Shown piece by piece: positions 59 through 44,639 of a stretch of DNA of 44,924 bases. Source of the DNA: Nemertoderma westbladi (lineage: Eukaryota; Animalia; Xenacoelomorpha); the NCBI GenBank assembly GCA_032718475.1, contig JAUCBJ010004307.1, positions 1-44,924 of the forward strand, in the 5' to 3' direction. The notes below the pieces were generated by a model, which had not been told where the DNA came from, searched no databases, and saw only the letters and a list, made by a program, of their open reading frames with translations. The position numbers were made by a program, and so were the translations under genes. The stretch's first letter is position 1. Each line of letters begins with the position of its first letter.

Positions 59-3000
59 TTATTGTAGATTTCCAACTTGCATAATGCCTGACATGTTGAG
101 CTTAGTTTGGAACTTGGGTTGTCCAGCAAATATATCTTCGGCTAGCTCTTTGTCGATGAATGTTCCTGTACTACCGGAGTCAAGGAGGGCGTTCACTACA
201 TAACTCCTCTCAGGTCCGTGAACTCTTACTTGCACCACAGGAAACTCTCGGATCCCTACATTGGAAGATGGCTCTTTCCAAGATGGTTGTCGCTCAGAAG
301 TAGTTAGAGTAAAGTCGTTGTCTGGATCCTTTTCATAGGTGAGTGCTCGATACACTGCGGTATTTATCATGTAACAGGATTCGTTTTCGTCGGAGAACTC
401 GTCTGTATAGAATCCTTCCATCTCAGATTGATCAGTGTCGTTCACATCACTGAATTGGACATGTAGCTCGGAATCACTTACCTGATTCGGACTATTTCGA
501 TCGAATTCAGCGTGCAACAAGATATGATGTTTCGCACCACACTTTGCACACCTTATGTCAGAGAAACAGGTTCGCCGTTGGTGTCCTTGTCTGAGGCAAT
601 TATAACATAACCGCTTATCCCACATGACTTCGCGTCTCTCCGTTAATGATTTCTTTAGAAATTCATCACACCTATTCAAATGGTGGATCCCGTCACACAG
701 CGCACATTTTGGTTTGATGTTACTTACCTTATTCTGAGTCACATTGTGTACACTGGCCTTTTCTTCGGGCTTTCTCACCTGAATTCTCTTGGGAGACGTG
801 GGAGGAGTTTTTCTTACCTGTTCTCTCCTGTCATTTGCTCGAGACTTGAATTTACTTACCTGATCTTTAGGCATTTTATTGACATAATAAGATCTATCAG
901 TGTCTTTCCCGCTATCTTCTCCTTGAGAAGTCTGGCTTTCGCCGTCGTCTGTATAACACACTGGTGTTACCTTTCTCCTAGAGAAGGGTTTTTCACTTAC
1001 CTTGTTTTCCGGTGTCTTCTCTCGGGATTGCTTGAGGAGTTGCAATTTCACTTCTCCATCCAAGAATGACATGAGATCAGTCATGGTAGGGTCTCGTCGT
1101 TGTTGTTCCATCATATATAGTACTTTCTTATCCCAGCGTGTGCCTACCCCACCTTTCGGTAAAGTAGAAGCCACAGCTCCAATGACCATAGAACTTTGGT
1201 ATTCATGAGACTTACCTAACCAATCTAATTGTCTACAGATCTCTTGAATCTCATCGGAAAACTCTATTATCCCACTGCTGATGAACTTTCTGGGCGCTAC
1301 CAATTTTGCATATAAATACTTAGCGATATTATTCCTATTACCATACCTGATGTTTAGTGTGTCCCAAACTTGTCTTAATCCGTCTGGATGTCCAATAAAC
1401 TTTAACGCCATTAACTTGGGAGATCCTTCCAAGCACTCGATGAGGTATCTAAGTTTTTCTCCATTAGATAGTACAGAGTTCTGTATGTTATCTTTGTAAT
1501 ATTCATTAAAAGGTAACCATTTCATCTCATCTCCATTGAATTTGACTATCTCTCCCACCTTCACCGCTTGCCGGGCTTCGGTTCTAGCCATTTGACGCGT
1601 AAAACTTTCTTGGGCCATCGTGTTATTTAATATCGAATTATCGGTATATAAATTTCTCGGATTATGATCAGTTCTATAGGGAATATCATTATCAACAGGT
1701 CTATAATTACCCTTAATAGGGTTCACTATAGGAGTTTCTACTTCGCTAGCAGTATATATGCGTGTAGGCTCCACACCTTGCGCATGCGATACTTCAGACC
1801 TAACAGGTTGACACATTGTTACAGAGGGTGGTGGTATACCTCTTTGAGTATTTACTAATTTATCGCGTTCTAACGCGATACTTTGCTGCACTTCTTGCAA
1901 CTCTAGCCTACTTTCCCTTACTGTGCCCTTGAACTGCTGGACAGTCTCCTGCATCTGTCCGAGCAGGATATCCATCCCCCGCCGTCCCTCGTCCACCCAT
2001 TCGACCGCCGAAGCGGGAGTCGCCAACGTTGTAGCGGGCGGACGATGGACAACGGGCGACAAATTAGGAATATTTCGCTCGGGACCCAGGACCTGAACTG
2101 TCTCTGGGGCAGTTCTAAGGGGCACAGGTAGCTTAGTGCTATGCAGAGGGAATTTAGAGGTAGTTTCAGGGAGCACAGGTGTGTCTATCACCGAAGGGGT
2201 GATTTCAAGAACAGGCCTAATTATTTCAGGCTCATCTACTATAGTAGGGAGTCTTTCTATTTTAATTATTTGGTCTGTGGGCTCTGTACTACCTAAGTTG
2301 GTGTTATTTAGTTGCCTTCTAACAGCTGGAGGCAAATCAGGCAATTTCTGACGGTGGAATGTTCTTTTACGTCTACTTAGACGAGATCTATTTCCCTTGC
2401 CTTCAGTATCGGTGGTATCGCCTTCCTCAGATGATGTATATCCCTGTCTTTTGGGAGTAGATCGATTCATCATCTGCATATTACTAGCTGTTAACTGTTT
2501 ATTTATGCAGTCTTGATTCTCCTGAATGTTTTCCAATTCTAATTGGGTGGTTTCTTCAGTCGCTCTCCGTTCGGCTTCTGCCACTGCCTCCGCCGCTTTT
2601 CTTTCCACTTCGGCCACTGCCTCTGCTGCCGCTACTGCCGCTTTTGCCTCTGCCGCTGCCACTGCCGCTGCCGCTTTTGTTTCTGCTTCGGCCGCTGCCT
2701 TTGCTGCTGCTACTGCCGCTTTTGCCTCTGCCGCTGCCACTGCCGCTGCCGCTATTGTTTCTGCTTCGGCCGCTGCCTTTGCTGCTGCTACTGCCGCTTT
2801 TGCCTCTGCCGCTGCCACTGCCGCTGCCGCTTTTGTTTCTACTTCTGCAGCTGCTACTGCTGCTGCTACTGCCGTTGCCTTTCTGTCTTCTATACGTTTT
2901 TTCTTTATTTGTTCTTCCTGGACTCGTGTGATGCGGAGTTGTTCATCAAATTTAGCCTGATTCGCAGCCCTCATTTCCACATCGATGGCATCCAACACAA

Positions 3001-4054
3001 GCTTGGTTCCTTCACTATTAGGGCTAAGTCCCTCTAACCTTCTCCTCAACTCGTCATCACCTAAAAAACGTTGATAGTCTGACAGATAAATGTCAATGGC
3101 ATCCCTCTTATGCGGTTTCTCTGCCGTCGCTTCACTTTCCACTTGGGAAAAAGTCGCGTCTGTTGATTCTCCATGGGTTGATCGCTCCTCCAGCTGAGCC
3201 TTCCACTGAGCTGTTCCTTGAACCTGGAGACTCACCCGTTGAAACCAAGTCTTTACGGCAACTTGCAACGACGTGTCTTGTCTTCGTTTAGAAGCCTCCT
3301 CAAAGGCTGATAAGATTAGCCTGATTCGTAGAATTCTTTCTCTAACTTGATAAAGCAGCAATCCCTGCTCTTGAGGTCCTTGAGGTTGTTGAAACAGTTG
3401 TTCTTTTAATCGCTCTATAGAGCTGAAGAATCCCTGTGCGTATCCGGCTGCGGACCTCTTCCACACAGCTGGATCGATGGTTTCCTTGGCTACTCCCATC
3501 CGGTGTATGTCTTCCCAGGCAGCTTCTGATAAATCAAACGGGACTCCGGGTCCGGGGAAGTTCCATTGCGACTCGACCATGGACTTCAGTTCTTCCCTTG
3601 TGTATCCAGCATAACTATCTCTAGTTGAACGCTGGCTTCTCGCCCAATCGATCTGGTGTTCTTCCACAGCGATCAATAACCTAGTGAGTACGGCTGCAGG
3701 AAGGATGAGAAGGGGATCCGAATAAACCTCATCCGTCATCCTTGCTCCGCGTTCGGGTGTCAGTTCTACCGTATCTTCACTACTGGAGCTATCGGGCCGT
3801 TGAGAAGTACGTTCTTGGCTCGCGGGTTGTTGCTGTTCCGCTGCTTCTTGGTCCCGTTTGACCTGAGCTCGAGTGCCTATGATAGACCTACGATGTTGAA
3901 CCAGCCTAGGTTCTTTTATTACTACTGGAGGGATGACCTTTCTCACAGTGGGAGGTGAACTGAACTTACGACCAGACGGTTCTATATCTCTATCTGAGTC
4001 GCAGATAGTTACATCTAATAGACTGTCTGACAGGTTCTGCTTAGTATCAGACAT
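59..4054 (-). CDS. gag: BEL/Pao Gag-protease polyprotein N-terminal part (1331 aa), ended by a 1-nt frameshift in the protease region
   Basis: DUF1759-like segment (FNGDEMKWLPF...EKLRYLIECLEG...L..RYG), knuckles CALCDGIHHLNRC, CYNCLRQGHQRRTC and CAKCGAKHHILLH, and aspartic protease ALLDSGSTGTFI. Relative to element B (gtttggaaa), A reads gttggaaa near 73-75, and the homologous sequence (ADYYVGALSTPQDE) continues in another frame to base 1. Confidence 0.93.
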   Translation of the reverse strand: MSDTKQNLSDSLLDVTICDSDRDIEPSGRKFSSPPTVRKVIPPVVIKEPRLVQHRRSIIGTRAQVKRDQEAAEQQQPASQERTSQRPDSSSSEDTVELTPERGARMTDEVYSDPLLILPAAVLTRLLIAVEEHQIDWARSQRSTRDSYAGYTREELKSMVESQWNFPGPGVPFDLSEAAWEDIHRMGVAKETIDPAVWKRSAAGYAQGFFSSIERLKEQLFQQPQGPQEQGLLLYQVRERILRIRLILSAFEEASKRRQDTSLQVAVKTWFQRVSLQVQGTAQWKAQLEERSTHGESTDATFSQVESEATAEKPHKRDAIDIYLSDYQRFLGDDELRRRLEGLSPNSEGTKLVLDAIDVEMRAANQAKFDEQLRITRVQEEQIKKKRIEDRKATAVAAAVAAAEVETKAAAAVAAAEAKAAVAAAKAAAEAETIAAAAVAAAEAKAAVAAAKAAAEAETKAAAAVAAAEAKAAVAAAEAVAEVERKAAEAVAEAERRATEETTQLELENIQENQDCINKQLTASNMQMMNRSTPKRQGYTSSEEGDTTDTEGKGNRSRLSRRKRTFHRQKLPDLPPAVRRQLNNTNLGSTEPTDQIIKIERLPTIVDEPEIIRPVLEITPSVIDTPVLPETTSKFPLHSTKLPVPLRTAPETVQVLGPERNIPNLSPVVHRPPATTLATPASAVEWVDEGRRGMDILLGQMQETVQQFKGTVRESRLELQEVQQSIALERDKLVNTQRGIPPPSVTMCQPVRSEVSHAQGVEPTRIYTASEVETPIVNPIKGNYRPVDNDIPYRTDHNPRNLYTDNSILNNTMAQESFTRQMARTEARQAVKVGEIVKFNGDEMKWLPFNEYYKDNIQNSVLSNGEKLRYLIECLEGSPKLMALKFIGHPDGLRQVWDTLNIRYGNRNNIAKYLYAKLVAPRKFISSGIIEFSDEIQEICRQLDWLGKSHEYQSSMVIGAVASTLPKGGVGTRWDKKVLYMMEQQRRDPTMTDLMSFLDGEVKLQLLKQSREKTPENKVSEKPFSRRKVTPVCYTDDGESQTSQGEDSGKDTDRSYYVNKMPKDQVSKFKSRANDRREQVRKTPPTSPKRIQVRKPEEKASVHNVTQNKVSNIKPKCALCDGIHHLNRCDEFLKKSLTERREVMWDKRLCYNCLRQGHQRRTCFSDIRCAKCGAKHHILLHAEFDRNSPNQVSDSELHVQFSDVNDTDQSEMEGFYTDEFSDENESCYMINTAVYRALTYEKDPDNDFTLTTSERQPSWKEPSSNVGIREFPVVQVRVHGPERSYVVNALLDSGSTGTFIDKELAEDIFAGQPKFQTKLNMSGIMQVGNLQ
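2560..2880 (-). repeat. Coding tandem repeat in gag (63-bp / 21-aa Ala-rich unit, about 3 copies)
   Basis: AAAAVAAAEAKAAVAAAKAAAEAET-type repeats. The homologous stretch in element B is shorter. Confidence 0.85.
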
Positions 4055-4169
4055 GTTTGTGAGTACAGTTGAATGCCTACTGCTATATTACAGTCTAAGC
4101 AAGTCTAGTAATTCAGTATTAACTGCTAGCCTAGTAATTAATTACCGATACTGCTACTCATTGTAGCGT

Positions 4170-6800: not shown

Positions 6801-7143
6801 GCTTACACGCCTTCTGTTCAATACTGGCCTACAAACAAATAAAACTTGACAGAAATAAGTAAAAATCTCAATAAAAAACCAGGGCTGCAGTCCCTGATTA
6901 ATTATTAAGGCCTACCGGTATATAACTATCAAATTCGAATAATACTAATGCACTTATACGGGAAGTACCGGTTAGGACAGTTAGGCCTGCGGACCTACAG
7001 AAGTACCGGTTCTGGCAGTTGGACCTACGGACCTACGGCAGTACCGGTTCTGGCAGTTGGGCCTACTGACCTACAGATGCACCGGTTCAGGTTTACCGGT
7101 TGACCGGTACTTTCAACTTTATTGCTTACTGCAATAAAGAAGC

Positions 7144-7155
7144 TATATCCTTTAA
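7144..7155 (-). promoter_or_regulatory. Primer-binding-site position of element A (TTAAAGGATATA); not tRNA-complementary, complementary to its own LTR
   Basis: Directly follows the LTR end ...GCGAACA on the minus strand and lacks TGG. It is 12/12 complementary to minus-strand LTR sequence at 7902-7913. Confidence 0.7.
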
Positions 7156-8404
7156 TGTTCGCGCTTTCAGACCTTTGGCAGTTTAACCCGCCAAATTAAG
7201 GTGTCTTCTAGATATTAAATCGCTTTTTAGCCTATGACAAGTATTTGATTCACTACACTAGTCGAAACCAATCTGTGCGCGACCATTCACCCGCTGGATA
7301 TTCCCGGGAGATTGGGTTCGACGGTTTAATTTTATTGCTATGTAAGCCTAATGTATTATTCGACTGACAGTATTATATAATCTCTGACAATATTATTCAC
7401 CTTCGGGAATATTAACAGTTCCTTTAGGACGTGGCGCTTTATCTATATAAACAGAGTTATGACTTAAACTACTCACAACGATATGGCTCAATTATAATTC
7501 ACATATATGGCGCATTCTTTAGGAATTGCTTCTTTAACAGACTCACTCATACACAATGCTGCACAATACTGCACACTAATCTGCCAATCTTCACTGATTT
7601 TAGTCACATATAAAAGGAACACAGACTGACTCATGTAGGGTCTATCAAATAACATTAGATTCACTTCAAACCACTTTAACATAAGTCACAATCGTTATTG
7701 GTAACCTTTCTCTCTTACCTTCGGTATATCAAGAATATTGGGTTTTCGGGGTTATTTCTCGTTATTCCAAATATAATAATTCATCAACCATATTATGAAG
7801 AACTGACAGTAAATAGCAGTATAACAATATAAAGTATGCACAGTGTTACACAGTATGCAGTGTATGCAGTACTGCAGTATGCAGTGATTACGAAATTGCA
7901 GTTAAAGGATATATGTCCTTATAATTAAACCTACTAGTGTTGAGCTAAAAAGCAGAAAGCACAAAACACTACAAAGCCGTTCTTTCGTGGCTTTGAAAAA
8001 CTCGTGACTACTGCTCTATACAAGGATACCAACTACCCTTATTCCACGAAGCTCCCGTTCAACACAGAGAAAGAGCAGTGAGATAGGAAAATTTCAGTTC
8101 AGTAGCTCTGTGATAGGTCAAAATCAAAGCTAACTCAAATTCTATTGGGAGATACAGAAAGTTGCAACGTGGCAATATCAGCCGTTAGCCGTCGTCATGG
8201 TAGCGACACTGTTTTCAAGAGTATCGAGCCTTTTACGTCACGAAATTACAGATTATGTCCTCTAAAGTACAAATACAGAAGAAATGGCTTTTATGTCCTC
8301 CAAAACACCAGTACAGCAAGGACACGGCCTTTTTATGCCTGGTAAACCAACCACAGAGTACTTTACGGGGATAATAACCGGCTAATTACGCAAAGGCTTT
8401 TACA
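7156..8404 (-). repeat. LTR of element A (1249 bp), shared: 3' LTR of the right unit and 5' LTR of the left unit
   Basis: TGT...ACA termini, with boundaries matching the TSD-defined LTR ends of element B. On the minus strand it is preceded by the PPT-like GGGAGCGG and followed by 5' UTR and gag. Confidence 0.93.
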
Positions 8405-8412
8405 CCGCTCCC
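8405..8412 (-). promoter_or_regulatory. Short polypurine-tract-like sequence GGGAGCGG
   Basis: Immediately upstream of LTR TGTAAAAG on the minus strand. Identical in element B (22627-22634). Confidence 0.65.
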
Positions 8413-9187
8413 AGAAAATGGGATTTAAGTCTATAAAATATACAAAATCACAATTTCTAATATACATAAATACTCTAAACAGTTAGTCTTTCTTGCGCGG
8501 ACGGCGTTTACGCAGTTTTTTAAAGCTATCAAGAGTCATTTTCTCTTTGGGGGAAGCCACTTTACTAGGAGGGCCATAACTCCTGGGTGAAGGGTGCAAT
8601 ATGATTGCATTAAAAGGTTTGGGTTTACGGTCGGTGTCTCTTCCATTTCGATATGCTTCTCCTCGAGCTGATTTTCCTCCGCTTGTCATGGGATACGTTC
8701 GTCCAAAACTCTCGCAGAGAATAGGGTTTTCTAAGCTTGATATCTTCTTAGAGATTCGAGATTTCCCAATCGAACTGAGATAAGGCCAATTCGTTTATCG
8801 ATTGGACTTACTGTTATAACTTACGTTTATCTGAACAAACGCAGGTTTCTTTTTTGATCTTTATAGAATAGCGTTTAACTCGTTTCGTACAACGCTCTCC
8901 TTCACCTTGATGAAGGGTTGTATCGCGTTAAACGGGACGACCATACGGTTGGATAGTGATATTAGGTGTCTGCGTCATAATCCAGCTAGGTAAGATGGGC
9001 GGCTAGCTAGAAATCACTGTCGGAGTGTTACCGATTAATTGTTAGGGTAGCACTAGATCTTGAACAGTGAATACCGTCCGCGAGGATCCGCGACACCACC
9101 AGGATCGCAGGTCTGAGGTCCAACTAAGGAATGAGGAGGTTTGACCGAGTATTCCGGGATTCTGATCGTAGGTTTACTCTAGGATCG

Positions 9188-9810
9188 TTAGAGCCGAGTG
9201 AACATAGGTGATACGTCAAACAAGTTTCGCTCGAAACTCCAGTAATTATAACGAGCACAACTGTGTTTAACACAACGTTTCCGTGGATGTTTATGTCTTT
9301 CCGTTTATTAATTGGGTCTAGGGCATTTATCGTAATAATACCAAAGACGCACGTCTGGTAGGGGGAAACGCGGGTGATATTTATTTGTTGTTACAATGCT
9401 TCTATCAAGAATTCCAAATATACGTTGGAGTTACCGCGTTTATTTGTTTCTTTAATGTCTTTTCTTTCGAGTCGATTTCGAATAGGATTTTCGCATTAGA
9501 ATTTTGATTTATCGTTTCGACTCCTCTGGGTAGGATATGTTCGACATAGCCCGTATCGTGTAAATCGATAGAATGGCCAATGGTTAAGAAGTCCATATAC
9601 ATACCATTACAATGCGTGTAGCGAGCGGTGAATTTTCCATAGTCCAATTCACGCGTAAGTTACTTCCAGGAAATCGTAGGTTCAATATAACGACCATCAT
9701 CCTTCGTAGTAGTTGGACTAGTATCACCGCGTATCAAGCTATCAACAAACGCTTGAAAGTAGAGTATATCGCTCCCTGATACCAAGACCATCTTCTATCA
9801 ACTCCGTCAT
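9188..9810 (-). pseudogene. Degenerate copy of the retrotransposon 3' extra ORF
   Basis: Starts MTELIEDGLGIRERYTL, homologous to the B ORF MIELIEDDLGIRERYTL, then has a 2-nt deletion. DYGKFTARYTHCNGMYMDFLTIGHSIDLHDT matches B, followed by further indels. Confidence 0.75.
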
Positions 9811-11438
9811 ATCTGCTATATATGAGTTTATCCATATTATAATGAGTTTATATTTAGGCGAGCGGGCGTCGCTGCCTACCCCAATCAACCCCCGGACAGT
9901 ACGAGATCCTCAGCGCCGATGTGTCGTCGCCGCCGTACTTTCGCCAACGACGTAGCCGCACAACGACAACGACAACCGGCACAAGTCACTCGACTGTCCG
10001 TCCCAAAGGCTTAGATGTACTTCAGGTTTTCCTTGGAGAGTTAGGTTACTTTTACGATTGCGACTGGCTACTGTAAACACACCTTAGCAGTAACATTCAC
10101 CTATAAACTCACAAATACCACACACACAACTTGTCACAAATTACACACATTCGGGCCATTTGTCCGTTAGTCAATGCCTTCCAGAATGTCACTGTATTAG
10201 TATGTATCCTTGGATACTAGTAGTGCGCTATTTATTCCCTATGCTATTCAATGGGACAAGCTTTCTATTGTTCTTTTAACTCAATTCTAATTCTAGCGTG
10301 GTTGTTGCTATGGTGACATTATGCAAAGCTAGAGGTAGAATTAGGGTAGTTCCAATGCATACAGATCTGGGATGTTATTTAATAGTATTCTTTAATAGTC
10401 AATGTTCTGTTTTATACATGACTTTATGAATTTTATCGGCTATTGACTATGTTTGGGAGACTTTCACACACTCATACGCATGATAAGATAAATCTCCGCT
10501 CCCTTGATCTATTAATTAATGGAATTTTGGGAACTTTATAAATTGCGTAAAAATGGCAATTTATTAAATTCATTAAAAGGCATGAATTTAAATTTATTCC
10601 CTGAAATTTTATTATTTGATAATTAAATGGACATATTTTGATTCTAGAACATGTCTAGGGACACAAGATCCTTAATTCTATGACAATTGTCTTTTTTAAG
10701 AATATCGGTAAATGCTACGATATCTTAATTGACTAGAATTGTTGAAGGATCTGAATTTTACAAATTTTGATTTATTAGATTTGCAAATATTAAATAATTA
10801 ATATTTGAGATGGGCACCGATTTATTCCAGAACTTGTCTGGGGACGTTAACCACTGATTCTAGAAATTGTCTTTCAAGTATATCGGTGGGTGCCGCGATA
10901 TCTTAATCGACTAGAATTACAGATGGTCAAAGGGTTTAACAGATTTATTTTGCGTTATACGCTACTGTTAAAGGGACATCACGCTACTATATGTATTATT
11001 TAATATACGGTATGAGAGCAATATCGCACGAAGCAATGTCAGTGTGAAGAGGCAAGTCGTTTCCAAGGTCTACCCAGAGCTTGGTTTAGCCGAGACACGA
11101 GGATCTGAACTTTGCATTCCTAATACTCTGCCTACCAATAATACTTAAATATAGTAGTGGCTTTATTGTACTTTAATAAGTACGGCTATTTCATCTTACT
11201 GTAGTTACGTATTTATAATAGAATACGGGCAGTAAGGAAAGAGAAAAAATAATTATTTCTTCGCCGTCTCACTAAATATAATATAAGTGATTACGTACGT
11301 AATAAACACGAACATATGGCACTATTCTACTAAATTAAATAAAACGATTATAATAAAATTACATAGTAATACATACATAAATATAAAAATAATAATATAA
11401 TATAAAATAATCGAGTCACACGCCCACTCCGAACGATA

Positions 11439-12255
11439 TTAAGTTGGGGAGTCCCTAGATGTCGGTTGGATTAGGGAAGTGGTCGTGGGAAGAGTTTCTT
11501 GCCTTCCATAGTTTCCGGAGAGCTCTCTGTCTCTTTCCAGCAAACATAAACGACCCACTGGGCGATTGAGCTGTTGAGTCTCAAAGACTATCCCTGGTTT
11601 CTTAAAGTTCCGCCGCATGACGACGAGCTCTACTGATCGCACCAAACCATCGCTCGAGATATAAGTCTCGATGATACGTCCTGTTTGCCATCGCTTACGT
11701 GGGAGATCGGGGTCCACAATAAGCACCATGTCTCCAGCGCTGACGTTTTCTTGCTGCGCAAACCACTTAGTTCGAAGTTGTAGAGTGGGCAGGTAATGTT
11801 TCTCGAAATGGTCAGCGAAACGACGGGATAGCAACTGCATAAGTTGCCAGGTTCGACGGCAGTACTCGTCTCCGTCTGTGATCTCCGATCGTGGGAGCAT
11901 GGCTACGGGTTTCTTCAGTAGAAAGTGCGCGGGTGTTAGCGCTTCCAGGGAATCCGGACTTGAAGAGACTGGCATAAGCGGTCTTTCGTTGAGATAGGCG
12001 GCGATTTCCTCCATTAACGTCCGCAATAGTTCGTCGGTGAGATAAGCGCGACAAGGTACAATAAAGTGGAACGCAGTCTTCACGCTCCTAATCAATCTCT
12101 CCCAACTTCCTCCCCACCAAGGGGCGTCGGCGGCGTTGAAGGTCCAGCTAGACGCTGTTATCCTTAGCTGATCGTCCACCTGTCTTTTGTTCCAGTCCTT
12201 TACGTAAGCTTGAATTTCGTTGTTGGCGCCAATGAAGTTCGTTCCCTTATCCGAT
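11439..12255 (-). pseudogene. pol: 5'-truncated BEL/Pao integrase (core remainder plus DUF5641-like C-terminus)
   Basis: SDKGTNFIGA (second catalytic D), APWWGGSWERLIRSVK (catalytic E), LNERPL, ALTPAHFL, YLPTLQLRTKW and W..GRI......DGLVRSV. It is fused directly to the truncated LTR at 12256. Confidence 0.92.
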
Positions 12256-13437
12256 CTTTTTAGCCTATGACAAGTATTTGATTCACTACACTAGTCGAAA
12301 CCAATCTGTGCGCGGCCATTCACCCGCTGGATATTCCCGGGAGATTGGGTTCGACGGTTTAATTTTATTGCTATGTAAGCCTAATGTATTATTCGACTGA
12401 CAGTATTATATAATCTCTGACAATATTATTCACCTTCGGGAATATTAACAGTTCCTTTAGGACGTGGCGCTTTATCTATATAAACAGAGTTATGACTTAA
12501 ACTACTCACAACGATATGGCTCAATTATAATTCACATATATGGCGCATTCTTTAGGAATTGCTTCTTTAACAGACTCACTCATACACAATGCTGCACAAT
12601 ACTGCACACTAATCTGCCAATCTTCACTGATTTTAGTCACATATAAAAGGAACACAGACTGACTCATGTAGGGTCTATCAAATAACATTAGATTCACTTC
12701 AAACCACTTTAACATAAGTCACAATCGTTATTGGTAACCTTTCTCTCTTACCTTCGGTATATCAAGAATATTGGGTTTTCGGGGTTATTTCTCGTTATTC
12801 CAAATATAATAATTCATCAACCATATTATGAAGAACTGACAGTAAATAGCAGTATAACAATATAAAGTATGCACAGTGTTACACAGTATGCAGTGTATGC
12901 AGTACTGCAGTATGCAGTGATTACGAAATTGCAGTTAAAGGATATATGTCCTTATAATTAAACCTACTAGTGTTGAGCTAAAAAGCAGAAAGCACAAAAC
13001 ACTACAAAGCCGTTCTTTCGTGGCTTTGAAAAACTCGTGACTACTGCTCTATACAAGGATACCAACTACCCTTATTCCACGAAGCTCCCGTTCAACACAG
13101 AGAAAGAGCAGTGAGATAGGAAAATTTCAGTTCAGTAGCTCTGTGATAGGTCAAAATCAAAGCTAACTCAAATTCTATTGGGAGATACAGAAAGTTGCAA
13201 CGTGGCAATATCAGCCGTTAGCCGTCGTCATGGTAGCGACACTGTTTTCAAGAGTATCGAGCCTTTTACGTCACGAAATTACAGATTATGTCCTCTAAAG
13301 TACAAATACAGAAGAAATGGCTTTTATGTCCTCCAAAACACCAGTACAGCAAGGACACGGCCTTTTTATGCCTGGTAAACCAACCACAGAGTACTTTACG
13401 GGGATAATAACCGGCTAATTACGCAAAGGCTTTTACA
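12256..13437 (-). repeat. Outer 5' LTR of element A, missing the last 67 bp of U5
   Basis: Matches 7223-8404. I noticed only one substitution by eye (gcgAcc vs gcgGcc). Confidence 0.93.
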
Positions 13438-14143
13438 GCTACTCCTATCTGCTACCCGAAGGTAGGGGTGGACGCTACTCCTATCTGCTACCCGAAGGTA
13501 GGGGTGGGTGCTACTCCTATCTGCTACCTGAAGGTAGGGGTGGGCGCTATTCCTATCTGCTACCCGAAGGTAGGGGTGGGTGCTACTCCTATCTGCTACC
13601 TGAAGGTAGGGGTGGGCGCTATTCCTATTTGCTACCCTAAGGTAGGGCTGGGCGCTACTCCTATCTACTACCCTAAGGTAGGGGGGGGGGGGGCTGCTCC
13701 TATCTGCTACCGGAAGGTAGGGGTGGGCGCTACTCCTATCTGCTACCCGAAGGTAGGGGTGGGCGCTACTCCTATCGGATACCCGAAGGTAGGGGTGAGC
13801 GCTACTCCTATCTGCTACCCGAAGGTAGGGGTGGGCGCTACTCCTATCTGATACCCGAAGGTAGGGGTGGGCGCTACTCCTATCTGCTACCCGAAGGTAG
13901 GGGTGGGCGCTACTCCTATCTGATACCCGAAGGTAGGGGTGGGCGCTACTCCTATCTGATACCCGAAGGTAGGGGTGGGCGCTACTCCTATCTGCTACCC
14001 TAAGGTAGGGGTGTGCCGGTGGGCGCTACTCCTATCTGCTACCCTAAGGTAGGGGTGGGCGCTACTCCTATCTGATACCCGAAGGTAGGGGTGGGCGCTA
14101 CTCCTATCTGCTACCCTAAGGTATGCTTTGACGCTACTCCTAT
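13438..14143. repeat. 36-bp minisatellite (gctactcctatctgctacccgaaggtaggggtgggc), about 19 copies
   Basis: Direct periodicity. Element A is inserted at its left edge. Confidence 0.95.
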
Positions 14144-14261
14144 CCCTTTTTTGGCTCACATTTATTCAACTGGACCTCATTTTATCGACCCTACGCGATG
14201 AAAGGCTGCTGAGTGAAATCTGGCGGGGCTCGCGGCTCTCAACCAGCTGAGCTACCCCGCC
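14144..14261 (-). mobile_element. tRNA-derived SINE fragment
   Basis: The minus strand begins GGCGGGGTAGCTCAGCTGGTTGAGAGC (tRNA 5' half, A-box) with remnant GAGCCCCGCCA. It is followed by CAGCCTTTCATCG..GGGTCGATAAAATGAG, resembling the conserved central domain shared by several metazoan SINE families (recalled, not searched). Confidence 0.65.
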
Positions 14262-15882: not shown

Positions 15883-16168
15883 GAAATACCAGTGTATAGT
15901 GGCCTATTAGTATCACACAAAAATACAAATTAAATAAAAAATAATAAAATCTAATAAACAAATTTAAATATTTTATTTTTATGAATTTTTTTTATTTTTA
16001 TTATTTTTTCTTCATTATTTTTATATTTAATTAATTAAATAATTTTTTCTTTTTATGAAATATTTGAAATAAATTTTTTACATTTTTTAATTTAATTTTA
16101 TTTGTTTTATAATTTAATTTGTATTTTTGTGTGATACTCATGAGCCACCATACACTGACTAGTATTTC
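15883..16168. mobile_element. Foldback/MITE-like element with ~45-50-bp imperfect inverted arms around an AT-rich core
   Basis: Left arm cagtgtatagtggcctattagtatcacacaaaaatacaaattaaat versus reverse complement of the right arm cagtgtatggtggctcatgagtatcacacaaaaatacaaattaaat. Confidence 0.7.
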
Positions 16169-21520: not shown

Positions 21521-22626
21521 TGTTCGCGCTTTTAAGACCTTTGGCAGTTTAACCCGCCAAATCTATATGTCTTCTAGGTTATAAATCGACTTTAGCCTAT
21601 GACAAGTATTTGATACAAATAAATCCAACATTAGCCGAAGCCAGTCTATGCGCGACCATTCACCCGCTGGATATACCCGGGAGACTGGATTCGGATGCTT
21701 TAATTTGATTGCGGTGCAGGCCTACCGTACTATTCGATTGATCGTTAATATATAATCTCTGACAAATATTATTCACTTTCGGGAAATATTAGCAGTTCCT
21801 TTAGGACGTGGCGCTCTATCCATATAAACAGAGTTATGACTTACACTATACACAACGGGATGGCTTATAGATCACAAAAGGTGCATTCTTTAGGAAATGC
21901 TTTGTTACTCGGTCAAGCACATACAGACTATTGCACACCACTGCACACTGAATTGCCGATATTCAGTGATTTTAATCATGTATAAAGAGAACAACAACCG
22001 ACATTTGTAGGGCCTATTAAGTAGCATTGCATTCACTACAAACCACGATAATGTATGTCGCAATTGCTATATGTAACCGGTCTCTCTAACCTTAGTGTAT
22101 CAAGAAGATTGGGGTTTCTGATCGTTTATCAATATTCTCCAAATAACAATATGCAAACGAATGATACATTTAATAACAAACCGTAAATAGCAGTAAATAA
22201 TGCGGTGAAAAGCAGTTTGAGTTTACAGCACGTAGTATGCAGTACCGTGCCAGACCAGGTAGGTAGTGTGCCAAGTTAACCAAGATAACAGTTTTGTGAT
22301 CTTATAATTAAAGACGTTCTAATGTTGGAAAATTCAGAAACATTCCACAGCCGATGATGTTCCAAGCTGGGAAAAACGTCATTACTGAATCATGTGATTC
22401 GTGGTATACATTTTACAGACAAAGAGGTAATCTATCACTGTGATTGGTCAACTGTTGTTCTGATTGGTTGATCGAACGGAACAAAGAGGCTACACAAGTA
22501 CAGCAAATCAGCCAACCAGCGGGCGGATTGTGCCACTAGAAGATACAGTTTAGAGGATTTGAGCGAATGGGGGAAAACTGGATTACGAATGGAAAAGGCC
22601 AGTTATATCCCCCAAAAGCTTTTACA
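21521..22626 (-). repeat. 3' LTR of element B (1106 bp)
   Basis: Direct repeat of 33598-34695 with a few substitutions and an 8-bp indel (gggatggc). Preceded on the minus strand by GGGAGCGG. Confidence 0.95.
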
Positions 22627-23223
22627 CCGCTCCCAGAAAATGGGATTTAATTATATAAAATATAAAAAATCACAGTTTCTAAAATATAAAAATACTCTAA
22701 ACAGTTAGTCTTTCTTGCGCGGACGGCGTTTACGCAGTTTCTTGAGGCTAGCAAGAGTCCTTTTCTCTTTGGGGCGAGCCACTTTACTAGGAGGGCTATA
22801 ACTCCTGGGTGAAGGGTGCAATACAATTGCATCAGAAGGTTTAAGGTTACGGTCGGTGTCTCGTCCATTTCGATATGCTTCTCCTCGAGCTGATTTTCCT
22901 CCGCTTGTCGTTGGATACGTTAAAACTCTCGCAGAGAATAGGGTTGTCTAAGTTCGATATCTTCTTAGAGATTTTGGATTTCCCAATCGAACTGAGATAA
23001 AGCCAATTCGTTTATCGCTTGGACTTGCTGTTACAACTTACGTTTATCTGAACAAACGCAGGTTTCCTTTCTGATCTTTGTAGAATAGCGTTTAACTCGT
23101 TTCGTACAACGCTCTCCTCCACCTTGATGAAGGGTTGTATCGCGTTAAACTGGGACGACTATAGGGTTGAATGGCGATATTAGGTGTCCGCGTCCCAATA
23201 CGGAATTATTTTATACGGTATTA

Positions 23224-25645: not shown

Positions 25646-26674
25646 TTACGTTATGGAGTCCCTAGATATTTGTTGGATTAGGGAGGTGGTCGTGGGAAGA
25701 GTATCTTGCCTTCCATAGTTTCCGGACAGTTTTCGGTCTCTTTCCAGTAAACATAAATGACCAGCTGGGCGATTGAGTGGTTGTGTTACTTTCTCCGCTC
25801 CCTTGGCCTGTCTAATCTCAGCCGGGTTAAGGTGGGGAGGCCATTCATCTTCTTTACTTAGGAAGTCGGGTTCACCTAACCAGTCTGGAGTATCTGTCAG
25901 TTCTTGAGGAGTTGCTCCTCTGGAGGCGATGTCGGCTAGATTAATCGTCTCGGGGCAATGTCTCCATTGATCTACATTGGAGTTGATGTCGTCATTATCT
26001 GAGGAGTATGGTCTTCCCTCAGTTGGATCGTCTAACTCACTGCTCTCATCTTCCCATTCTCTTACTTGATATACCTGATCTTTCGGTAATCTTTCCATGA
26101 GAGTTCTACGGGAAGGGCCAGTAAAGTACCAACCCACTCTAGTTCTTCCCGCATAAGCTTGTAGTGGTTGCGGTTGAGCAGGCCGTTTCTCCAATGTCTC
26201 GAGCGCTTCATGCGCATTTTGACCGATGAGTATTTGGACTCCAGGATAATCGGTGTTGAATCTAGGTATTTCAAGCTGCTGGGTGAAATCGTCCTCATCC
26301 CAGATATAAGGTTCCACTTGGCTGGTAGCGAAGTTCTTTATCGCGACCATTTTTACTGACCTTATGCTGTGTTCTCCTAGTTCATCCTGGGGGGTGGACA
26401 ACGCGCCTACATAATAATCCGCTATTACGGTAGATTTCCAAACCTGCATAATTCCTGACATGTTTAGCTTAGTTCGGAACTTGGGTTGTCCAGCAAAGAT
26501 GTCTTCGGCTAGTTCTTTGTCGATGAATGTTCCTGTGCTACCGGAGTCAAGGAGGGCGTTCACTATATAACTCCTTTTAGGTCCGTGGACCCTTAACTGT
26601 ACTACAGGAAATTCTCGGATTCCTACATTGGAAGTTGGCGCTTTCCAAGATGGTTGTCGATCAGAAGTAGTTAG
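25646..26674 (-). pseudogene. pol: Internally deleted pol: protease fused in frame to the RNase H tail and the extreme integrase C-terminus
   Basis: ALLDSGSTGTFI...ILIG protease, then Pao RNase H end QWRHCPETINLADIASRG...WLGEPDFL...WP. It ends QPLNRPAGHLCLLERD...SRDSIT, matching the end of A's integrase. Confidence 0.88.
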
Positions 26675-26675
26675 G

Positions 26676-27979
26676 GGGAGCTCCGCTTACGTCCTTCTGG
26701 GCTCCTCCCCGAGGCGCACCCACGAGGCGGACGCTTTTCCACCACCCTTGGGGCCAGTCCGACTGATGTTTTTATCAGACCGGGCCGGAGGGTAGCCCGA
26801 TGCTTCCCGGGTTCAATTTTCAATCCCCCGATCACACCGGCACAGCTCGTCAGTGTAGCCAGATGGTCGGCTACTGTCAACTTACTGTGGCCTGACTGTA
26901 CATTGAGCCAACTCAGAGAGTCAACCGGCGGGTGGACCAGTCGATAGCGATCGAGCATCAAGGTCGCCCTTGAGCCAAACCGACGGTCTTGTCCCAAGTG
27001 GGCTTGCGCTACCCAACATGGAATATTGACACGTTTTCACCCGCCTCGCCGGCAGTATTGAGGGGAAGTCGGTTCGGCAAACAATACTGACTAGCTCGAA
27101 AGCTAGGAACAAGTAACCACTTACCAGTCACTGTACACGTGTACTCAACAGATGCTCACGAAATCAAGTACACAACGGTAAACACAAAATCTGACACATA
27201 CCATGCACACACAGAGGACATAATCGGGAAAGACAAATCGGTGACAAAATCAGAGGGGACAAAATTGTATCGACTGATAAAATAGTCGAGAGTACCTTAT
27301 TTTGCCGTCAGGGCAAAATAACTTTGTGTGCACAAAGCATGCTGGGGCGCAGTAAAGATATGGTCCTACTAATACCAGCGGCGTCTAGACCAACCGGCAA
27401 GGGTTCCCATACTCACTCGCAGTGGCCATACATACACTCACGTATACCACGTACCCACAGCAACAGAAAGCTCAAGCAAACTGCCACTGATCGTCCACAC
27501 ACAAACCACAAATTCCAGAGTATCATTCACTCGGACCACACTACCACCATCCCCTCCTTGCAGCAGATATTCTGGGTGCTACCTCCATTCCAATAGTAGC
27601 ACCAACAGAATCATCAGAATCCTGCCCATTCCGATGCAACACCTCCATTCCAATAGTGCTACCCTGGGAAAAGACACGTTTCGGCGGCCGATCGGAGACA
27701 GCAAAGAGTCTGGTCAACTCATACATACCAAACATAGACCTACCACATAGACCACATAAACCACAGATCACACTAAGCCACCACCCCTACTGTGTACAGG
27801 ACTGGCAGTACGGCAACAGGCCGACTAGACGGTACCACGGCACCATGTTGATTCATGGTTCGCTAGACACGAGGGCCTTCAGTAACTCCCTTGCACTATA
27901 GAAACGATTTAACGTGCCCCCAGACCCTCACGAGTCCGCCGCCGCCTGTTGACAGCACCCCTATAGAGACCTCACCTCC
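26676..27979. mobile_element. Unclassified ~1.3-kb non-coding insertion at the gag/protease junction of element B
   Basis: Absent from element A, where the flanks are contiguous near 305-325. Flanked by TTAGG at 26671-26675 and 27980-27984. GC-richer than its context, with many short perfect hairpins. Confidence 0.7.
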
Positions 27980-30900
27980 TTAGGCACTGTCGGTTTCCTT
28001 CTCATACGTAAGTGCTCGATACACTGCGGTATTTATTAAGTAACAGGATTCGTTTTCGTCTGAGAATTCGTCCGTATAGAATCCTTCCATCTCAGAACTT
28101 TGGTCAGTGTCGTTCACATCACTGAATTGGACATGTAGTTCGGACTCACTTACCTGACTCGAGCTGTTTTGTTCGAATTCAGTGTGCAACAAGATATGAT
28201 GTTTTGCGCCGCACTTTGCACACCTTGCGTCGGAGTAACAGGTTCGCCGTTGGTGTCCTCGTCTGAGGCAATTATAACACAACCGCTTATCCCACATGAC
28301 TTCCCGTCTATCGTTTAGTGATTTCCTTAGGAATTCATCACACACACTTAAACGGTGGGGCCCGTCACACAGCACACATTTTGGTTTGATGTTACTTACC
28401 TTACTTTGGGTAACGTTGTGCACACTCGTTCTTTCCTCGGGCTTTCTTACATGAATTCTCTTAGGAGACGTAGGAGGAGTTTTTCTTACTTGTTCTCTCC
28501 TGTCATTGGTTCGAGACTTGAATTTACTTACGTCCTTTAGCGCTTTGTTGTCATAGTAAGATCTTTCAGTGTCTTTCCCGCTGTCTTCCTCTTGAGAAGC
28601 CTGGCTTTCGTCGTCGTCTGTATAACACACTGGTATTACCTTTCTCCTAGAAACGGGTTTCTCACTTACCTTGTTTTCCGGTGTCTTCTCTCTGGACTGC
28701 TTTAGGAGCTGCAATTTCACTTCTCCATCTAAGAATGACATGAGATCAGCCATGGTAGGATCTCTTCGTTGTTGTTCCATCATGTATAACACTGTCTTGT
28801 CCCAGCGTGTACCTACTCCGCCCTTGGGCAAATTAGATACTAAGGCTCCTACAACCATAGAATTCTGGTATTCATGAGACTTACCTAACCAATCTAGTTG
28901 TCTACAGATCTCCTGAATCTCGTCGGAAATCTCTATAATCCCGCTGCTAAGAAACTTTCGGGGCGCCATTAATTTCGCATATAAATACCTAGCTATGTTA
29001 GTCCTATTACCATACCTGATGTTCAGTGTATCCCAAACTTGTCTTAATCCATCTGGATGTCCAATAAACTTTAACGCCATTAACTTGGGAGATCCTTCCA
29101 AGCACTCGATGAGGAATCTAAGTTTCTCTCCATTAGATAGCACAGAGTTATGTATGTTATCTTTGTAATATTCATTAAAAGGTAACCATTTCATCTCATC
29201 TCCATTGAACTTGACGATCTCTCCCACCTTTACCGCTTGACGGGCTTCGGTTCTAGCCATTTGACGCGTAAAACTTTCTTGGGCCATCGTGTTATTTAAT
29301 ATCGAATTATCGGTATATAAATTTCTCGGATTATTATCAAGTCTATATGGGATATCATTGTCAACAGGTTTATAATTACCCTTAATATGGTTTACTATGG
29401 GAGTTTCTACTTCGCTAGCAGTATAGATGCGTGTAGGCTCCACACCTTGCGCATGAAATACTTCAGACATAACAGGTTGACACATTGTTACAGGGGGTGG
29501 TGGTATACCCTTTTGTGTATTTACTAATTTATCGCGTTCTAACGCTATACTTTGCTGCACTTCTTGCAACTCTAACCTACTCTCTCTAATTGTTCCCTTT
29601 AACTGCTGCACAGTTCCCTCCATCTCCTGGGCCTGCTGAGAGGAGCGAGAATGTTGTTCCCTCAGCTGTCCGAGCAGGAGACCCATCTCCCGTCGTCCCT
29701 CATCTACCCACTCGAAACGGGAGGCGCCAACGTTGTAGCGGGCGGACGAGGGACAACGGGCGACAAGTCATGAATATTTCGCTCGGAGTCCAGGACATGA
29801 ACAATTTCAGGGGTGGTTCTGTGGGGCACAGGTAGCTTCGTGCTGTGCAGAGGGAATTTAGAGGTAGGTTCAGGGAGTACAGGTGTCTCTATCACCGAAG
29901 GGGTGGCTTCGAGAACAGGCCTAATTATTTCAGGCTCATCTACTATAGTAGGGAGTCTTTCTATGTTAATTATTTGGTCTGTGGGTTCTGTACTACCTAA
30001 GTCTGTGCTAGCTAGTTGCCTTCTAACAGCTGGGGGCAAATCAGGCAATTTCTGACGGTGGGACATTCTTTTACGTCTGCTTAGGCGAGATCGATTTCCT
30101 CCGCCTTCAGGATCGGTGGTATCGCCTTCCTCAGATGATGTATATCCCTGTCTTTTGGGAGTTGATCGACTCATCATCTGCATATTACTACCTGTTAACT
30201 GTTTATTGAAGTTGTCTTGCCTCTCTTGAAGATTTTCCAACTCTAGTTGGGTTGTCTCTTCAGATGCCCTCCGTTCTGCTTCTGCCACTGCCACTGCCGC
30301 TTTTCTTTCCACTTCGGCTGCTTTTCTTTCCGCTTCTGCCTCTGCCGCTGCCGCTTTTCTTTCCACCTCTACCGCCTTTCTTTCCGCTTCTGCCGCTGCC
30401 ACTGCTGCTGCCACTGCCACTGTCTTTCTGTCTTCTATACGTTTTTTCCTTACTTGTTCTTCTTGAACCTTAGCGATGCGGATGCTTTCATTGAATTTAG
30501 CTTGGTTCGCAGCTAACCTATCCACATCGATTGCGTCCAACACAAGCTTGGCTCCTTCACTATTAGGGCTAAGTCCATCTAGCCTTCTCCTCAACTCTTC
30601 ATCACCTAAAAAACGTTGATAGTCTGACAGATAGATGTCAATGGCATCCCTCTTATGCGGTTTCTCTGCCGTCGCTTCACTTTCCACTTGGGAAAAAGTA
30701 GCGTCTGTTGATTCTCCATGGGTTGAGCGCTCATCCAGCTGGGCTTTCCACTGAGCCGTTCCTTGAACCTGGAGACTCACCCTTTGAAACCAAGTCTTTA
30801 CGGCAACTTGCAACGACGTGTCTTGTCTTCTTTTAGAAGCCTCCTCAAAGGCCGATAAGATTAGCCTGATTCGTTGAATTCTTTCTCTAACTTGATAAAG

Positions 30901-31629
30901 CAGCTGTCCCTGCTCTTGAGGTCCTTGGGGTTGTTGAAACAGTTGTTCTTTTAATCGCTCCATGGAGCTGAAGAATCCCTGTACGTATCCGGCTGCGGAC
31001 CTCTTCCACACAGCTGGATCGATGGTTTCCTTGGTTACTCCCATCCTGTGTATGTCTTCCCAGGCAGCTTCTGATAAGTCAAACGGTAGTCCGGGTCCGG
31101 GGAAGTTCCATTGCGACTCGACAATAGACTTCAGTTCTTCCCTTGTGTATCCCGCATAACTATCTTTAGTCGACCGCTTACTTCTCGCCCAATCGATCTG
31201 GTGTTCTTCCACCGCAGTCAATAACCTAGTGAGTACGGCTGCAGGAAGGCTGAGAAGGGGATCCGAATAAACCGCATCCGTCATCTTTGCTCCGTGCTCG
31301 GGTGTCAGCTCTTCAGTATCCGCACTACTGGAGCTGTCGGGCCGCTGAGAAATAAGTTCTCGGCTCGCGGGTAGTTGCTGTTCTGCTGCTTCTTGGTCCC
31401 GCTTGACCTGAGCTCGAGTGCCTATGATAGACCTATGGTGCTCTACTAGCCTAGGGTCTGACACTACTACTGTAGGGATGACCTTGCTTACAGTAGGAGG
31501 GGACTTGGTCTTTGGTCTCAGACGCTCTATACTCTTAGCTGAGTCCCAGATCTTTTTAAGACCCTGTCTAACACTCATTCTAGCACTTTCTAAGAGACTA
31601 TCTGACAGTGTTTGTTTTGTGTCAGACAT
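27980..31629 (-). pseudogene. gag: gag of element B, split by a 7-bp deletion frameshift near 29713 (ORFs 29704-31629 and 27980-29686)
   Basis: Colinear and highly similar to A gag. A reads tcg gcg gtc gaa tgg where B reads tcg agt ggg tag. The three Cys/His knuckles are retained. Confidence 0.92.
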
Positions 31630-33586
31630 GTTTGATTGTACAGTTGAATGCCTACTGCTATATTACAGTTAAAGCAAGTCTAGTAATTCAGTATCACTGT
31701 TAGCCTAGTAATTAATTACCGATACTGCTACTCAGTGTAGCGTAATATATATATAATATATTAGAATACCGGTATGCTTATAGTATATATATATAAGTAT
31801 TATCACAGACTAGATTTGTCACAGAATACCGGTATGTAATTTCAGCACAAGTATATATAAATATATAATAGGCCTATCGTGAATACCGGTATACAGCTTA
31901 CACTTATAATATATATAAGTATAATTATGAACTAGAATTAATTACAGAATACCGGTATATAATTTAGCCTAAATTTATAGAAATAAATATAATAAGCCTA
32001 TCGCGAATACCGGTATGTCAATTATTTTAAATAATTGAATTTCTGAATTTTTAGGGGTTACTTGGTTACTTTACTTACTTTATTACCGTTATTTGAGCAG
32101 TAGTCCAACTGATATTGAGACCTAATTGTTGTATGACAGGCCTACTATTTATAAATCGTTTGAGTTGATTTATAATATATATATACCCGTATAATGGGTT
32201 TTGTCAATATTTGAAATAAATGTTATTATTTCTGGGAAGGAGTCACTACACAGAAGCTGTGCGCTCTCAGTGAAGTGCTACTTGTTGGACACTAAAACAA
32301 ATAATTCTAATTTACCTAAGTTACTTAATACTACAAATTACGTACAATTCGGGGTGAGATTACAATCTCTAAATAAACACAAAAATTACACGTACGAATT
32401 TTTAGGGTAATTTTACAAGAAGTCTACAAACCAGCCTAACAAAGGGTTAGAATATCTGGTTATTACAAACGGACAGGGTACTACGGTATTTGAAAATAAT
32501 AAGTAGTAGTAAATATACTGCATTGTCCAGATAGGAAAAATACCACCATCTGACGACTTATAGCCGTATCGCTATAAGTACTACGTTATGTATCACGGAG
32601 TGTTCCTACCTAGAAGTTAATTACCGCGGTCTACCAGAACCAACGTGCCTATTAACCACTTTACAACACAAATATACTGCCTACACACTAATTACCTTCG
32701 GAAAGCACTGTACACTAAACCCTAAATTAGATACAAGTACTTATACAACAAATAATCAGTAGTTAAAATACTTGAACAGCTAAAAGAACCACGGTATCTG
32801 CTGGAGTGACCGGGGCACAAAATCACCAGTCTTTACCTACGCCAAGCAGCCCTGATGTAGTACCGGGGTTAATTTAACTATAACGGTATATATAACAAGC
32901 ACAATTACTGTAGGAATAAACTTGGGGTATGAATGTTGCGAATAATCGCATAAACTCTGAATAATAAATATTACGCTACCCGTACAAACTACTCAAACAA
33001 AATACAAACCAAACGCTGGCAGACTACTATCAAGCCTAAATAAACTACAGGACATGCAGACTCCGAAATGGTTAGTTAGTATGCGTTCTAACCTAGTAGT
33101 ACGACTTATTCTTTTGGTGGGGGATTTACCTTACAGCTCTAGCTGCCCCTACGTTCCTAACCGGCACTTTATCGGACATACACTCTACATGCACTGCAAT
33201 CCGTTCAGACCTATCAACAGTCAGACAACAGTCCAGCCTACAAATTATCTGTACGATCTGAGCAGGCTTACACGTCTTCTGCTCAATATTAGCCTACAAA
33301 TAAATAAAACTGACAGAAACAAGTAAACCATACAAAGGAATAAGGGGTGATCAATCCCTAATCCCCTAACAGCCTACAATATACAATATATCACAATCGA
33401 AATAATACTGATGTACCTATACTGCTGTAAGTACCGGTTCCGGTGGTTAGGTAGTTAGGCCTACAGGTTACCGGTCGACCGGTACTTCAGCTTTATTGCT
33501 TGCTGCAATAAAGAAGCAATAACTGTTACTGTTCTTACCAGAACAATATTAAACTGTATTTATTGCCTACACTGCAATCTAGATTA

Positions 33587-33597
33587 AATACTGTTAT
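33587..33597 (-). promoter_or_regulatory. Primer-binding-site position of element B (ATAACAGTATT); not tRNA-complementary, complementary to its own LTR
   Basis: Directly follows the TSD-validated LTR end and lacks TGG. It is 10/11 complementary (first 8 perfect) to minus-strand LTR sequence at 34354-34364. Confidence 0.65.
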
Positions 33598-34695
33598 TGT
33601 TCGCGCTTTTAAGACCTTTGGCAGTTTAACCCGCCAAATCTATATGTCTTCTAGGTTATAAATCGACTTTAGCCTATGACAAGTATTTGATACAAATAAA
33701 TCCAACATTAGCCGAAGCCAGTCTATGCGCGACCATTCACCCGCTGGATATACCCGGGAGACTGGATTCGGATGCTTTAATTTGATTGCGGTGCAGGCCT
33801 ACCGTACTATTCGATTGATCGTTAATATATAATCTCTGACAAATATTATTCACTTTCGGGAAATATTAGCAGTTCCTTTAGGACGTGGCGCTCTATCCAT
33901 ATAAACAGAGTTATGACTTACACTATACACAACTTATAGATCACAAAAGGTGCATTCTTTAGGAAATGCTTTGTTACTCGGTCAAGCACATACAGACTAT
34001 TGCACACCACTGCACACTGAATTGCCGATATTCACTGATTTTAATCATGTATAAAGAGAACAGCAACCGACATTTGTAGGGCCTATTAAGTAGCATTGAA
34101 TTCACTACAAACCACGATAATGTATGTCGCAATTGCTATATGTAACCAGTCTCTCTAACCTTAGTGTATCAAGAAGATTGGGGTTTCTGATCGTTTATCA
34201 ATATTCTCCAAATAACAATATGCAAACGAATGATACATTTAATAACAAACCGTAAATAGCAGTAAATAATGCGGTGAAAAGCAGTTTGAGTTTACAGCAC
34301 GTAGTATGCAGTACTGTGCCAGACCAGGTAGGTAGTGTGCCAAGTTAACCAAGATAACAGTTTTGTGATCTTATAATTAAAGACGTTCTAATGTTGGAAA
34401 ATTCAGAAACATTCCACAGCCGATGATGTTCTAAGCTGGGAAAAACGTCATTACTGAATCATGTGATTCGTGGTATACATTTTACACACAAAGAGGTAAT
34501 CTATCACTGTGATTGGTCAACTGTTGTTCTGATTGGTTGATCGAACGGAACAAAGAGGCTACACAAGTACAGCAAATCAGCCAACCAGCGGGCGGATTGT
34601 GCCACTAGAAGATACAGTTTAGAGGATTTGAGCGAATGGGGGAAAACTGGATTACGAATGGAAAAGGCCAGTTATATCCCCCAAAAGCTTTTACA
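33598..34695 (-). repeat. 5' LTR of element B (1098 bp)
   Basis: Direct repeat of 21521-22626, followed by TSD GTATC. Confidence 0.95.
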
Positions 34696-44293: not shown

Positions 44294-44400
44294 AGGTTCG
44301 CAAGAATTACAGAAAGCCTATTACAAACTCTAATGACCTATCGTACTATCAGCTAGAGCCAATGTCAATGTGCACATACATACTTACTCATGCCTACGTA

Positions 44401-44639
44401 CTCGACTCGATAGGTTCGACTCCGCTCGATCGGTCCAACTCGGCTCGATAGGTTCGACTCCGCTCGATCGGTCCAACTCGGCTCGATAGGTTCGACGCGG
44501 CTCGATCGGTCCAACTCGACTCGATCGGTTCGACTCGACTCGATAGGTTCGACTCCGCTCGATCGGTCCAACTCGGCTCGATAGGTTCGACGCGGCTCGA
44601 TCGGTCCAACTCGGCTCGATAGGTTCGACGCGGCTCGAT
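44401..44639. repeat. 19-bp monomer / 38-bp dimer CpG-rich tandem repeat (ctcgataggttcgactccg / ctcgatcggtccaactcgg)
   Basis: ctcgat recurs at 44406, 44425, 44444 and onward, about 12 monomers. Confidence 0.9.

Follow-up and report, generated by a model that had tools for sequence, protein, structure and literature searches.

What primes reverse transcription in the LTR retrotransposons on contig JAUCBJ010004307.1 of the xenacoelomorph Nemertoderma westbladi (assembly GCA_032718475.1)? The window, by which is meant the whole stretch of DNA analysed (44,924 nt, positions 1 to 44,924 of the forward strand), carries two elements, A and B, with BEL/Pao-type proteins. An earlier, sequence-only reading had proposed that both dispense with a tRNA primer-binding site (PBS) and prime from their own LTR transcript. 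The ICTV profile of the family Belpaoviridae describes tRNA-primed replication from an 18-nt PBS for tRNA-Arg or tRNA-Gly (PMC8742986).

Window elements and their post-LTR sites

Both elements lie on the minus strand (Table 1). LTR A is common to two tandem copies, an upstream deleted copy and a downstream copy consisting of a leader and the gag-protease ORF, and element A extends beyond the window edge. Element B has lost its reverse transcriptase (RT), most of RNase H and most of the integrase. Pfam searches returned DUF1759 (E 7e-12 and 1e-13) and DUF5641 (E 3e-20). The best 120 of 456 homologs were BEL/Pao-type polyproteins, with no more than 43% identity to the window integrase, and most homologs among the matches listed carry PF05380. 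Matches between the window and intact relatives were limited to the protease, an RNase H remnant and the integrase end, no RT being present in the window. The LTRs of 1.1-1.25 kb with TG...CA ends and the GATAC duplication around B are of BEL/Pao type, as are the Gag and integrase, for which BEL/Pao polyproteins are the nearest proteins. The window copies read as defective BEL/Pao LTR retrotransposons, and no autonomous one was seen.

Table 1. Positions of the LTRs, putative priming sites and coding regions of elements A and B in the window.
Feature	Position	Strand	Remark
LTR A, 1249 nt, TG...CA	7156..8404	-	3' LTR of upstream deleted copy and 5' LTR of downstream copy
Second LTR A copy	12256..13437	-	99.9% identical; 3' end lost via deletion into integrase; holds segment copy 12935-12946
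Element A non-tRNA primer-binding position	7144..7155	-	12/12 complementary to 7902-7913
Predicted self-primer segment, LTR A	7902..7913	-	predicted 3' end 7902, 746 nt from LTR end
Conserved A/B motif, TATA-like on minus strand	7919..7929	-	
Hairpin, 9-bp stem and 5-nt loop, directly after A's PBS	7117..7139	-	same stem after B's second unit
Gag-protease ORF of A (DUF1759, Cys-His boxes, DSG protease motif)	59..4087	-	1342 residues
Integrase C-terminal fragment (DUF5641)	11439..12290	-	query for searches and tree
5' LTR of element B, 1098 nt	33598..34695	-	98.6% identical to B's 3' LTR
3' LTR of element B	21521..22626	-	segment copy at 22285-22295
Element B non-tRNA primer-binding position	33587..33597	-	10/11 complementary to 34354-34364
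Predicted self-primer segment, B 5' LTR	34354..34364	-	
Second PBS-like unit of B, GAACA before it	33518..33529	-	homolog of A's PBS, judged from the sequence downstream
Broken gag-protease region of B, three ORFs	25646..31662	-	

Several other features of the elements and their surroundings were recorded. The gag ORF (59-4087) has a long N-terminal extension with a 39-bp alanine-rich repeat (2570-2866), of which B has a different number of copies. About 3 kb separate the integrase end from the 3' LTR (8405-11500 and 22627-25800) and are 85-91% alike in A and B; in B this region includes an ORF of 263 residues (24015-23224) with no Pfam match, and it is possibly a decayed extra gene. The polypurine tract at 8405-8418 is short and atypical (GGGAGCGG), and echoes the GGGGCCGG tract that precedes the 3' LTR in most relatives. 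Satellite arrays with units of 36 bp (13438-14144), 55 bp (17297-20292), 38 bp (36831-44294) and 19 bp (44400-44639) are also present, the upstream A copy adjoining the first of them. A 52-nt inverted repeat (15890-15941 / 16106-16157, 88% complementary) is possibly a small non-autonomous DNA transposon.

The bases that follow LTR A, TTAAAGGATATA (7155-7144), are the exact reverse complement of the predicted segment within that LTR, and match the second LTR A copy equally. The corresponding bases of element B, ATAACAGTATT (33597-33587), pair at 10 of 11 positions with its own segment, eight of them contiguous before a mismatch. TGG is absent from the first 12 nt past the LTR end in both elements, and the offset from the segment to TTATAATTAAA (7919, 22302, 34371) is 17 nt in every copy. 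Support for the LTR ends comes from the presence of two LTR copies, and from GATAC, a 5-bp target duplication that lies outside both LTRs of element B; because this duplication bounds B, its LTR end is set independently of the pairing. The coordinates of LTRs, sites and segments in the sequence-only reading all hold, as do its observations that neither element begins with TGG, that A pairs at 12/12 positions and B at 10/11 (also with the 3' LTR copy), and that both share the 17-nt offset. Its claim of compensatory change stands in part: the two 12-mers differ at seven positions; at five of these the LTR carries the matching complementary change, and at the other two (positions 9 and 12) B is mismatched.

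Dinucleotide shuffles of LTR A gave a 12/12 match anywhere in 1 of 300 cases, and those of LTR B a 10/11 match anywhere in 11 of 300. These counts accept a match at any place in the LTR; the shared register lies outside the statistic and would lower chance further. The pairing of B is modest when taken alone, and its weight therefore comes only from the register it has in common with A. Folding of the window duplexes predicted loose additional pairs, and 5' extension of the duplex does not exceed shuffles. In Tf1/sushi elements the structure is extended, with the U5 end flanking the duplex.

A second PBS-like unit, not noted in the sequence-only reading, follows 68 nt downstream of the first in element B and forms nine Watson-Crick pairs and one G-U pair out of 11 with the B segment. 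The whole PBS-plus-hairpin unit is tandemly duplicated (33597-33500), and a relative, L058, likewise has a repeated PBS (about 1066-1135); both repeats are possibly by-products of primer copying.

Read depth in two DNA runs indicated that the family is very abundant and subdivided. Contigs aligned to 7118-7185, which cover leaders close to the window sequence and not divergent ones, included no TGG-type variant. A PBS variant, 7151 T>G, made up 26-28% of the depth of these contigs in X1 and X3; the rows listed for the LTR segment do not include its partner position, 7906. The segment variant 7902 T>A accounted for about half of the local depth in two DNA runs; its partner, 7155 A>T, was absent from the contigs aligned to 7118-7185, and the variant may come from B-like leaders outside this alignment.

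Self-pairing, tRNA-type sites and predicted split primers among relatives

A metagenome scan with an integrase alignment gave 528 loci, of which the best 80 were kept, and 32 of these were scored together with A and B. The 48 unscored loci comprise five near-duplicates, three that are tRNA-type by eye (L009, L016, L077), one miss (L014), four without part of the LTR (L022, L031, L044, L049) and 35 in which the 5' LTR end is missing or the locus was not inspected in detail; the exon-1 half of L031 and of L049 shows pairing on inspection by eye. Viral contigs yielded one locus, which was uninformative, and the exact 22-base LTR-end motif had no match in metagenome, genome or viral contigs. Eight of the scored relatives are tRNA-type, with ACA, then 1-6 nt, then TGG.

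An element was counted as self-pairing when at least 10 contiguous Watson-Crick pairs with its own LTR began at an offset of 0-7 nt past the LTR end. This was the case for 22 of the 26 non-TGG elements (relatives among the best 80 of 528 loci, plus A and B) and for none of the eight with a tRNA PBS (0/8), and controls gave 10/858 with the LTRs of other elements and 22/2600 with shuffled sites. The four non-TGG elements below 10 pairs are B (8), L078 (9), L075, which reaches 12 pairs with a better LTR end, and L051, in which the predicted junction crosses a contig break; misses among the relatives are L078 and L014 (7 pairs). Since many LTR ends had been picked after the sequence was viewed, two guard tests were added. 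Seven of eight elements whose ends are set by two LTR copies passed, and when every ACA was taken as a candidate end, 14/17 non-tRNA loci passed, against 8/340 shuffles and 0/6 tRNA loci.

The paired run begins 0-6 nt past the LTR end (25 elements), and the TGG of the tRNA-type relatives lies at 1-6 nt. All 25, the window elements among them, have T as the second paired base; C follows the predicted cut in 16/25, as it does in the window elements. The primer lies 746-756 nt from the LTR end in the window family as against 62-384 nt in relatives. Self-pairing and a tRNA-type PBS are mutually exclusive across the relatives and lie at the same distance from the LTR end, and self-pairing is not peculiar to the window family but a trait of a broad BEL/Pao branch. 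The check on relatives that the sequence-only reading had called for came out in its favour, distant BEL/Pao elements also being complementary to their own LTR.

In 12 relatives the DNA holds only 6-8 pairs per run, and 10-15 are reached once a GT-AG intron in the LTR is removed. The predicted introns measure 71-488 nt in the 11 cases listed; L004 passes only under an eased pyrimidine filter (6 instead of 7 of 12), which was applied to the controls too. PBS and LTR partner change in step in L034 and L064. A complement that spans a GT-AG junction in 12 relatives points to pairing as RNA, and the primer segment is predicted to be put together by LTR intron splicing in about half of the related families. 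That the LTR retains the intron although the PBS corresponds to the spliced sequence would be explained most simply by splicing of the 5' copy, which acts as primer, with the 3' copy remaining unspliced as template. Segments in A and B are contiguous, with no such junction in the window LTRs, and no GT-AG joint was found among the listed rows of run contigs aligned to the window, where run X4 is RNA only by guess. A candidate 77-nt intron was noted by eye in LTR A downstream of the primer segment (7718-7642, minus strand), with a GTAAG donor, CTAAT and a TAG acceptor; aligned sites occur in B, and its removal would shorten the long loop.

An integrase tree of 230 columns, which is unrooted, with support not starred and a long window branch, separates the window protein and 23 self-pairing elements from nine tRNA-type elements and L075 (branch 94/92). 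L075, though self-pairing, groups with the tRNA elements, and is a possible second origin of self-pairing. Its TATA box precedes the primer end by 50 nt, and its LTR end takes part in a 14-bp arm (about 265-291 and 602-639). In a 108-row tree, the product of a quick search only, fish, sea urchin, tunicate, nemertean and snail proteins fall on the self-pairing side and insect proteins group with the tRNA-type loci. Host range, the sole basis for the comparison, suggests that the self-pairing branch is the Sinbad/Sailor lineage (PMC6238403 and PMC8220671, available text). On balance we favour the view that a broad BEL/Pao branch of aquatic animals, the window family included, dropped tRNA priming, and that in about half of it the spliceosome builds the primer, gating reverse transcription and marking the 5' copy, the unspliced 3' copy being the template.

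Possible routes to the primer

The post-LTR bases of A and B are complementary to a stretch of the element's own LTR, and the analysis argues that reverse transcription of both is probably primed by their own RNA in the manner of Tf1. Such tRNA-independent self-priming, as first proposed, is supported by the covariation between A and B and more strongly by the exclusivity among relatives and the split in the integrase tree. Transcription would begin in the 5' LTR, either at the segment itself or some tens of nucleotides ahead of it. The segment would anneal beside the LTR end, the element's RNase H would cut just past it (before 7901 in A, 34353 in B) and RT would extend the resulting 3' end; annealing, cut and extension are modelled on Tf1 as described in the available text of PMC7175516. 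Plus-strand synthesis would copy the primer back into the PBS, and this would hold PBS and segment in step. The predicted intron-split primers of relatives would, by inference, speak for the 5' copy as primer. Against self-priming weigh the spacing of TATAAG described below, the long distance from primer to LTR end, the two mismatches of B, the two family variants without apparent compensation, the misses L014 and L078, and the long window branch and the position of L075 in the integrase tree.

The TATA-like motif lies 10 nt upstream of the window segment, and TATAAG 22 nt upstream of the predicted primer end. If TATAAG is a TATA box, its position implies a start just downstream of the segment, being too close for a start at the segment itself; a transcript start exactly at 7913/34364, near which one of the two variants in the sequence-only reading placed it, fits this spacing poorly and is not supported. 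The spacing bears also on a different source of primer, the U3 copy within the RNA's 3' LTR portion (in cis or on a partner RNA), with TATAAG as TATA box and the start just past the segment. TATAAG is conserved in A and B at that spacing, and pairing extended over it is not significant (shuffles equally low in 98/500 for A and 394/500 for B). However, cutting there would take R off that RNA, and the split primers of relatives would be easier to obtain with a spliced 5' copy and the 3' copy as template. There is also no shared TATA distance among relatives, in which TATA-like matches are scattered in distance or missing. Priming from the 3' LTR copy is accordingly considered unlikely.

The duplex could instead be a structural pairing of the leader, concerned with packaging or translation control, the true primer being something unrecognised. 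Retroviral leaders form U5-leader stems, which gives this idea a precedent, and priming in the window elements is itself a prediction. It seems quite improbable, however, as the duplex sits where a tRNA PBS would be and never occurs together with one (0/8 tRNA elements), no TGG lies within 12 nt in the window elements, and a length of 10-15 bp resembles that of the 11-nt Tf1 primer. A host tRNA fragment or snRNA as primer, the LTR match being secondary, has a parallel in the half-tRNA priming of Ty1/copia elements (PMC6317226, available text) but is very improbable here: the 25 sites are diverse in sequence yet match their own LTRs, with cross-matches at 10/858, and the window has no tRNA gene and, in 1-36700, no Rfam match. 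These last two results also led to the rejection of a self-encoded tRNA-like primer. A chance match in AT-rich DNA, which the shuffle count of B alone would allow, is scarcely credible given the 1/300 of A, the shared register and the cross-pair and shuffle controls of the relatives.

Comparison with known systems and significance

Self-priming through the element's own RNA, the reading preferred here, is described for the Ty3/gypsy chromoviruses Tf1/Tf2 of Schizosaccharomyces pombe, Tf1/sushi and Tcn1, which have no tRNA PBS, and in Tf1 the opening 11 nt of the transcript act as primer (PMC7175516, PMC6317226, available text). As far as that text goes, the Tf1 group and the window elements have in common some 11 nt beside the 5' LTR that complement the element's own LTR transcript. 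The window elements encode BEL/Pao proteins whereas the Tf1/sushi group encodes those of Ty3/gypsy chromoviruses, and they are not members of that group. The Tf1 primer is the RNA start, while the window segment is probably not at the start, and the 750-nt loop of the window family is unlike Tf1. Predicted intron-split primers occur in relatives of the window family, with no mention of them for Tf1 in the text available.

Outside the Tf1 group, self-priming has been predicted from sequence, as it is here, for the TAR lineage of plant Ty1/copia elements (Houba, Osr-1; PMC6317226, available text). Fungal GalEa Copia elements resemble the window elements in having no PBS and a hairpin after the LTR; a conserved hairpin site is described for them, for which no LTR complement was found, at least in the part of PMC5445492 available, and such a complement is present in the window elements. 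With the Belpaoviridae the window elements share LTRs, a DUF1759 gag with Cys-His boxes, protease, a DUF5641 integrase and a 5-bp target duplication, but not the 18-nt PBS for tRNA-Arg or tRNA-Gly (PMC8742986). They are accordingly placed as a BEL/Pao variant by their proteins and not as fitting the profile. The terms PBS and tRNA do not occur in the main text of two BEL/Pao papers (PMC554778, PMC3118150) or of the mollusc survey. No report of self-priming in BEL/Pao was found in the literature, within the available text of the papers; Repbase, GyDB and the supplements of BEL/Pao surveys may already record a missing PBS.

Self-priming is thus known in kind from Tf1-like elements, and would be new for a superfamily described as tRNA-primed, as would the predicted splice-dependent form in relatives. 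The best reading is that the Tf1-like self-priming of the window elements arose outside Ty3/gypsy. The PBS predicts the primer end, the cut site and the splice junction of relatives base for base, and therefore offers a cheap test with existing RNA data. If the reading is true, self-priming arose in all three superfamilies of LTR retrotransposons, BEL/Pao being the third after Ty1/copia and Ty3/gypsy, and would be the rule in a large animal branch, one that would be under-called by LTR finders that depend on a tRNA PBS. Primer formation through splicing, if true, would connect retrotransposon replication to host RNA processing in a new way.
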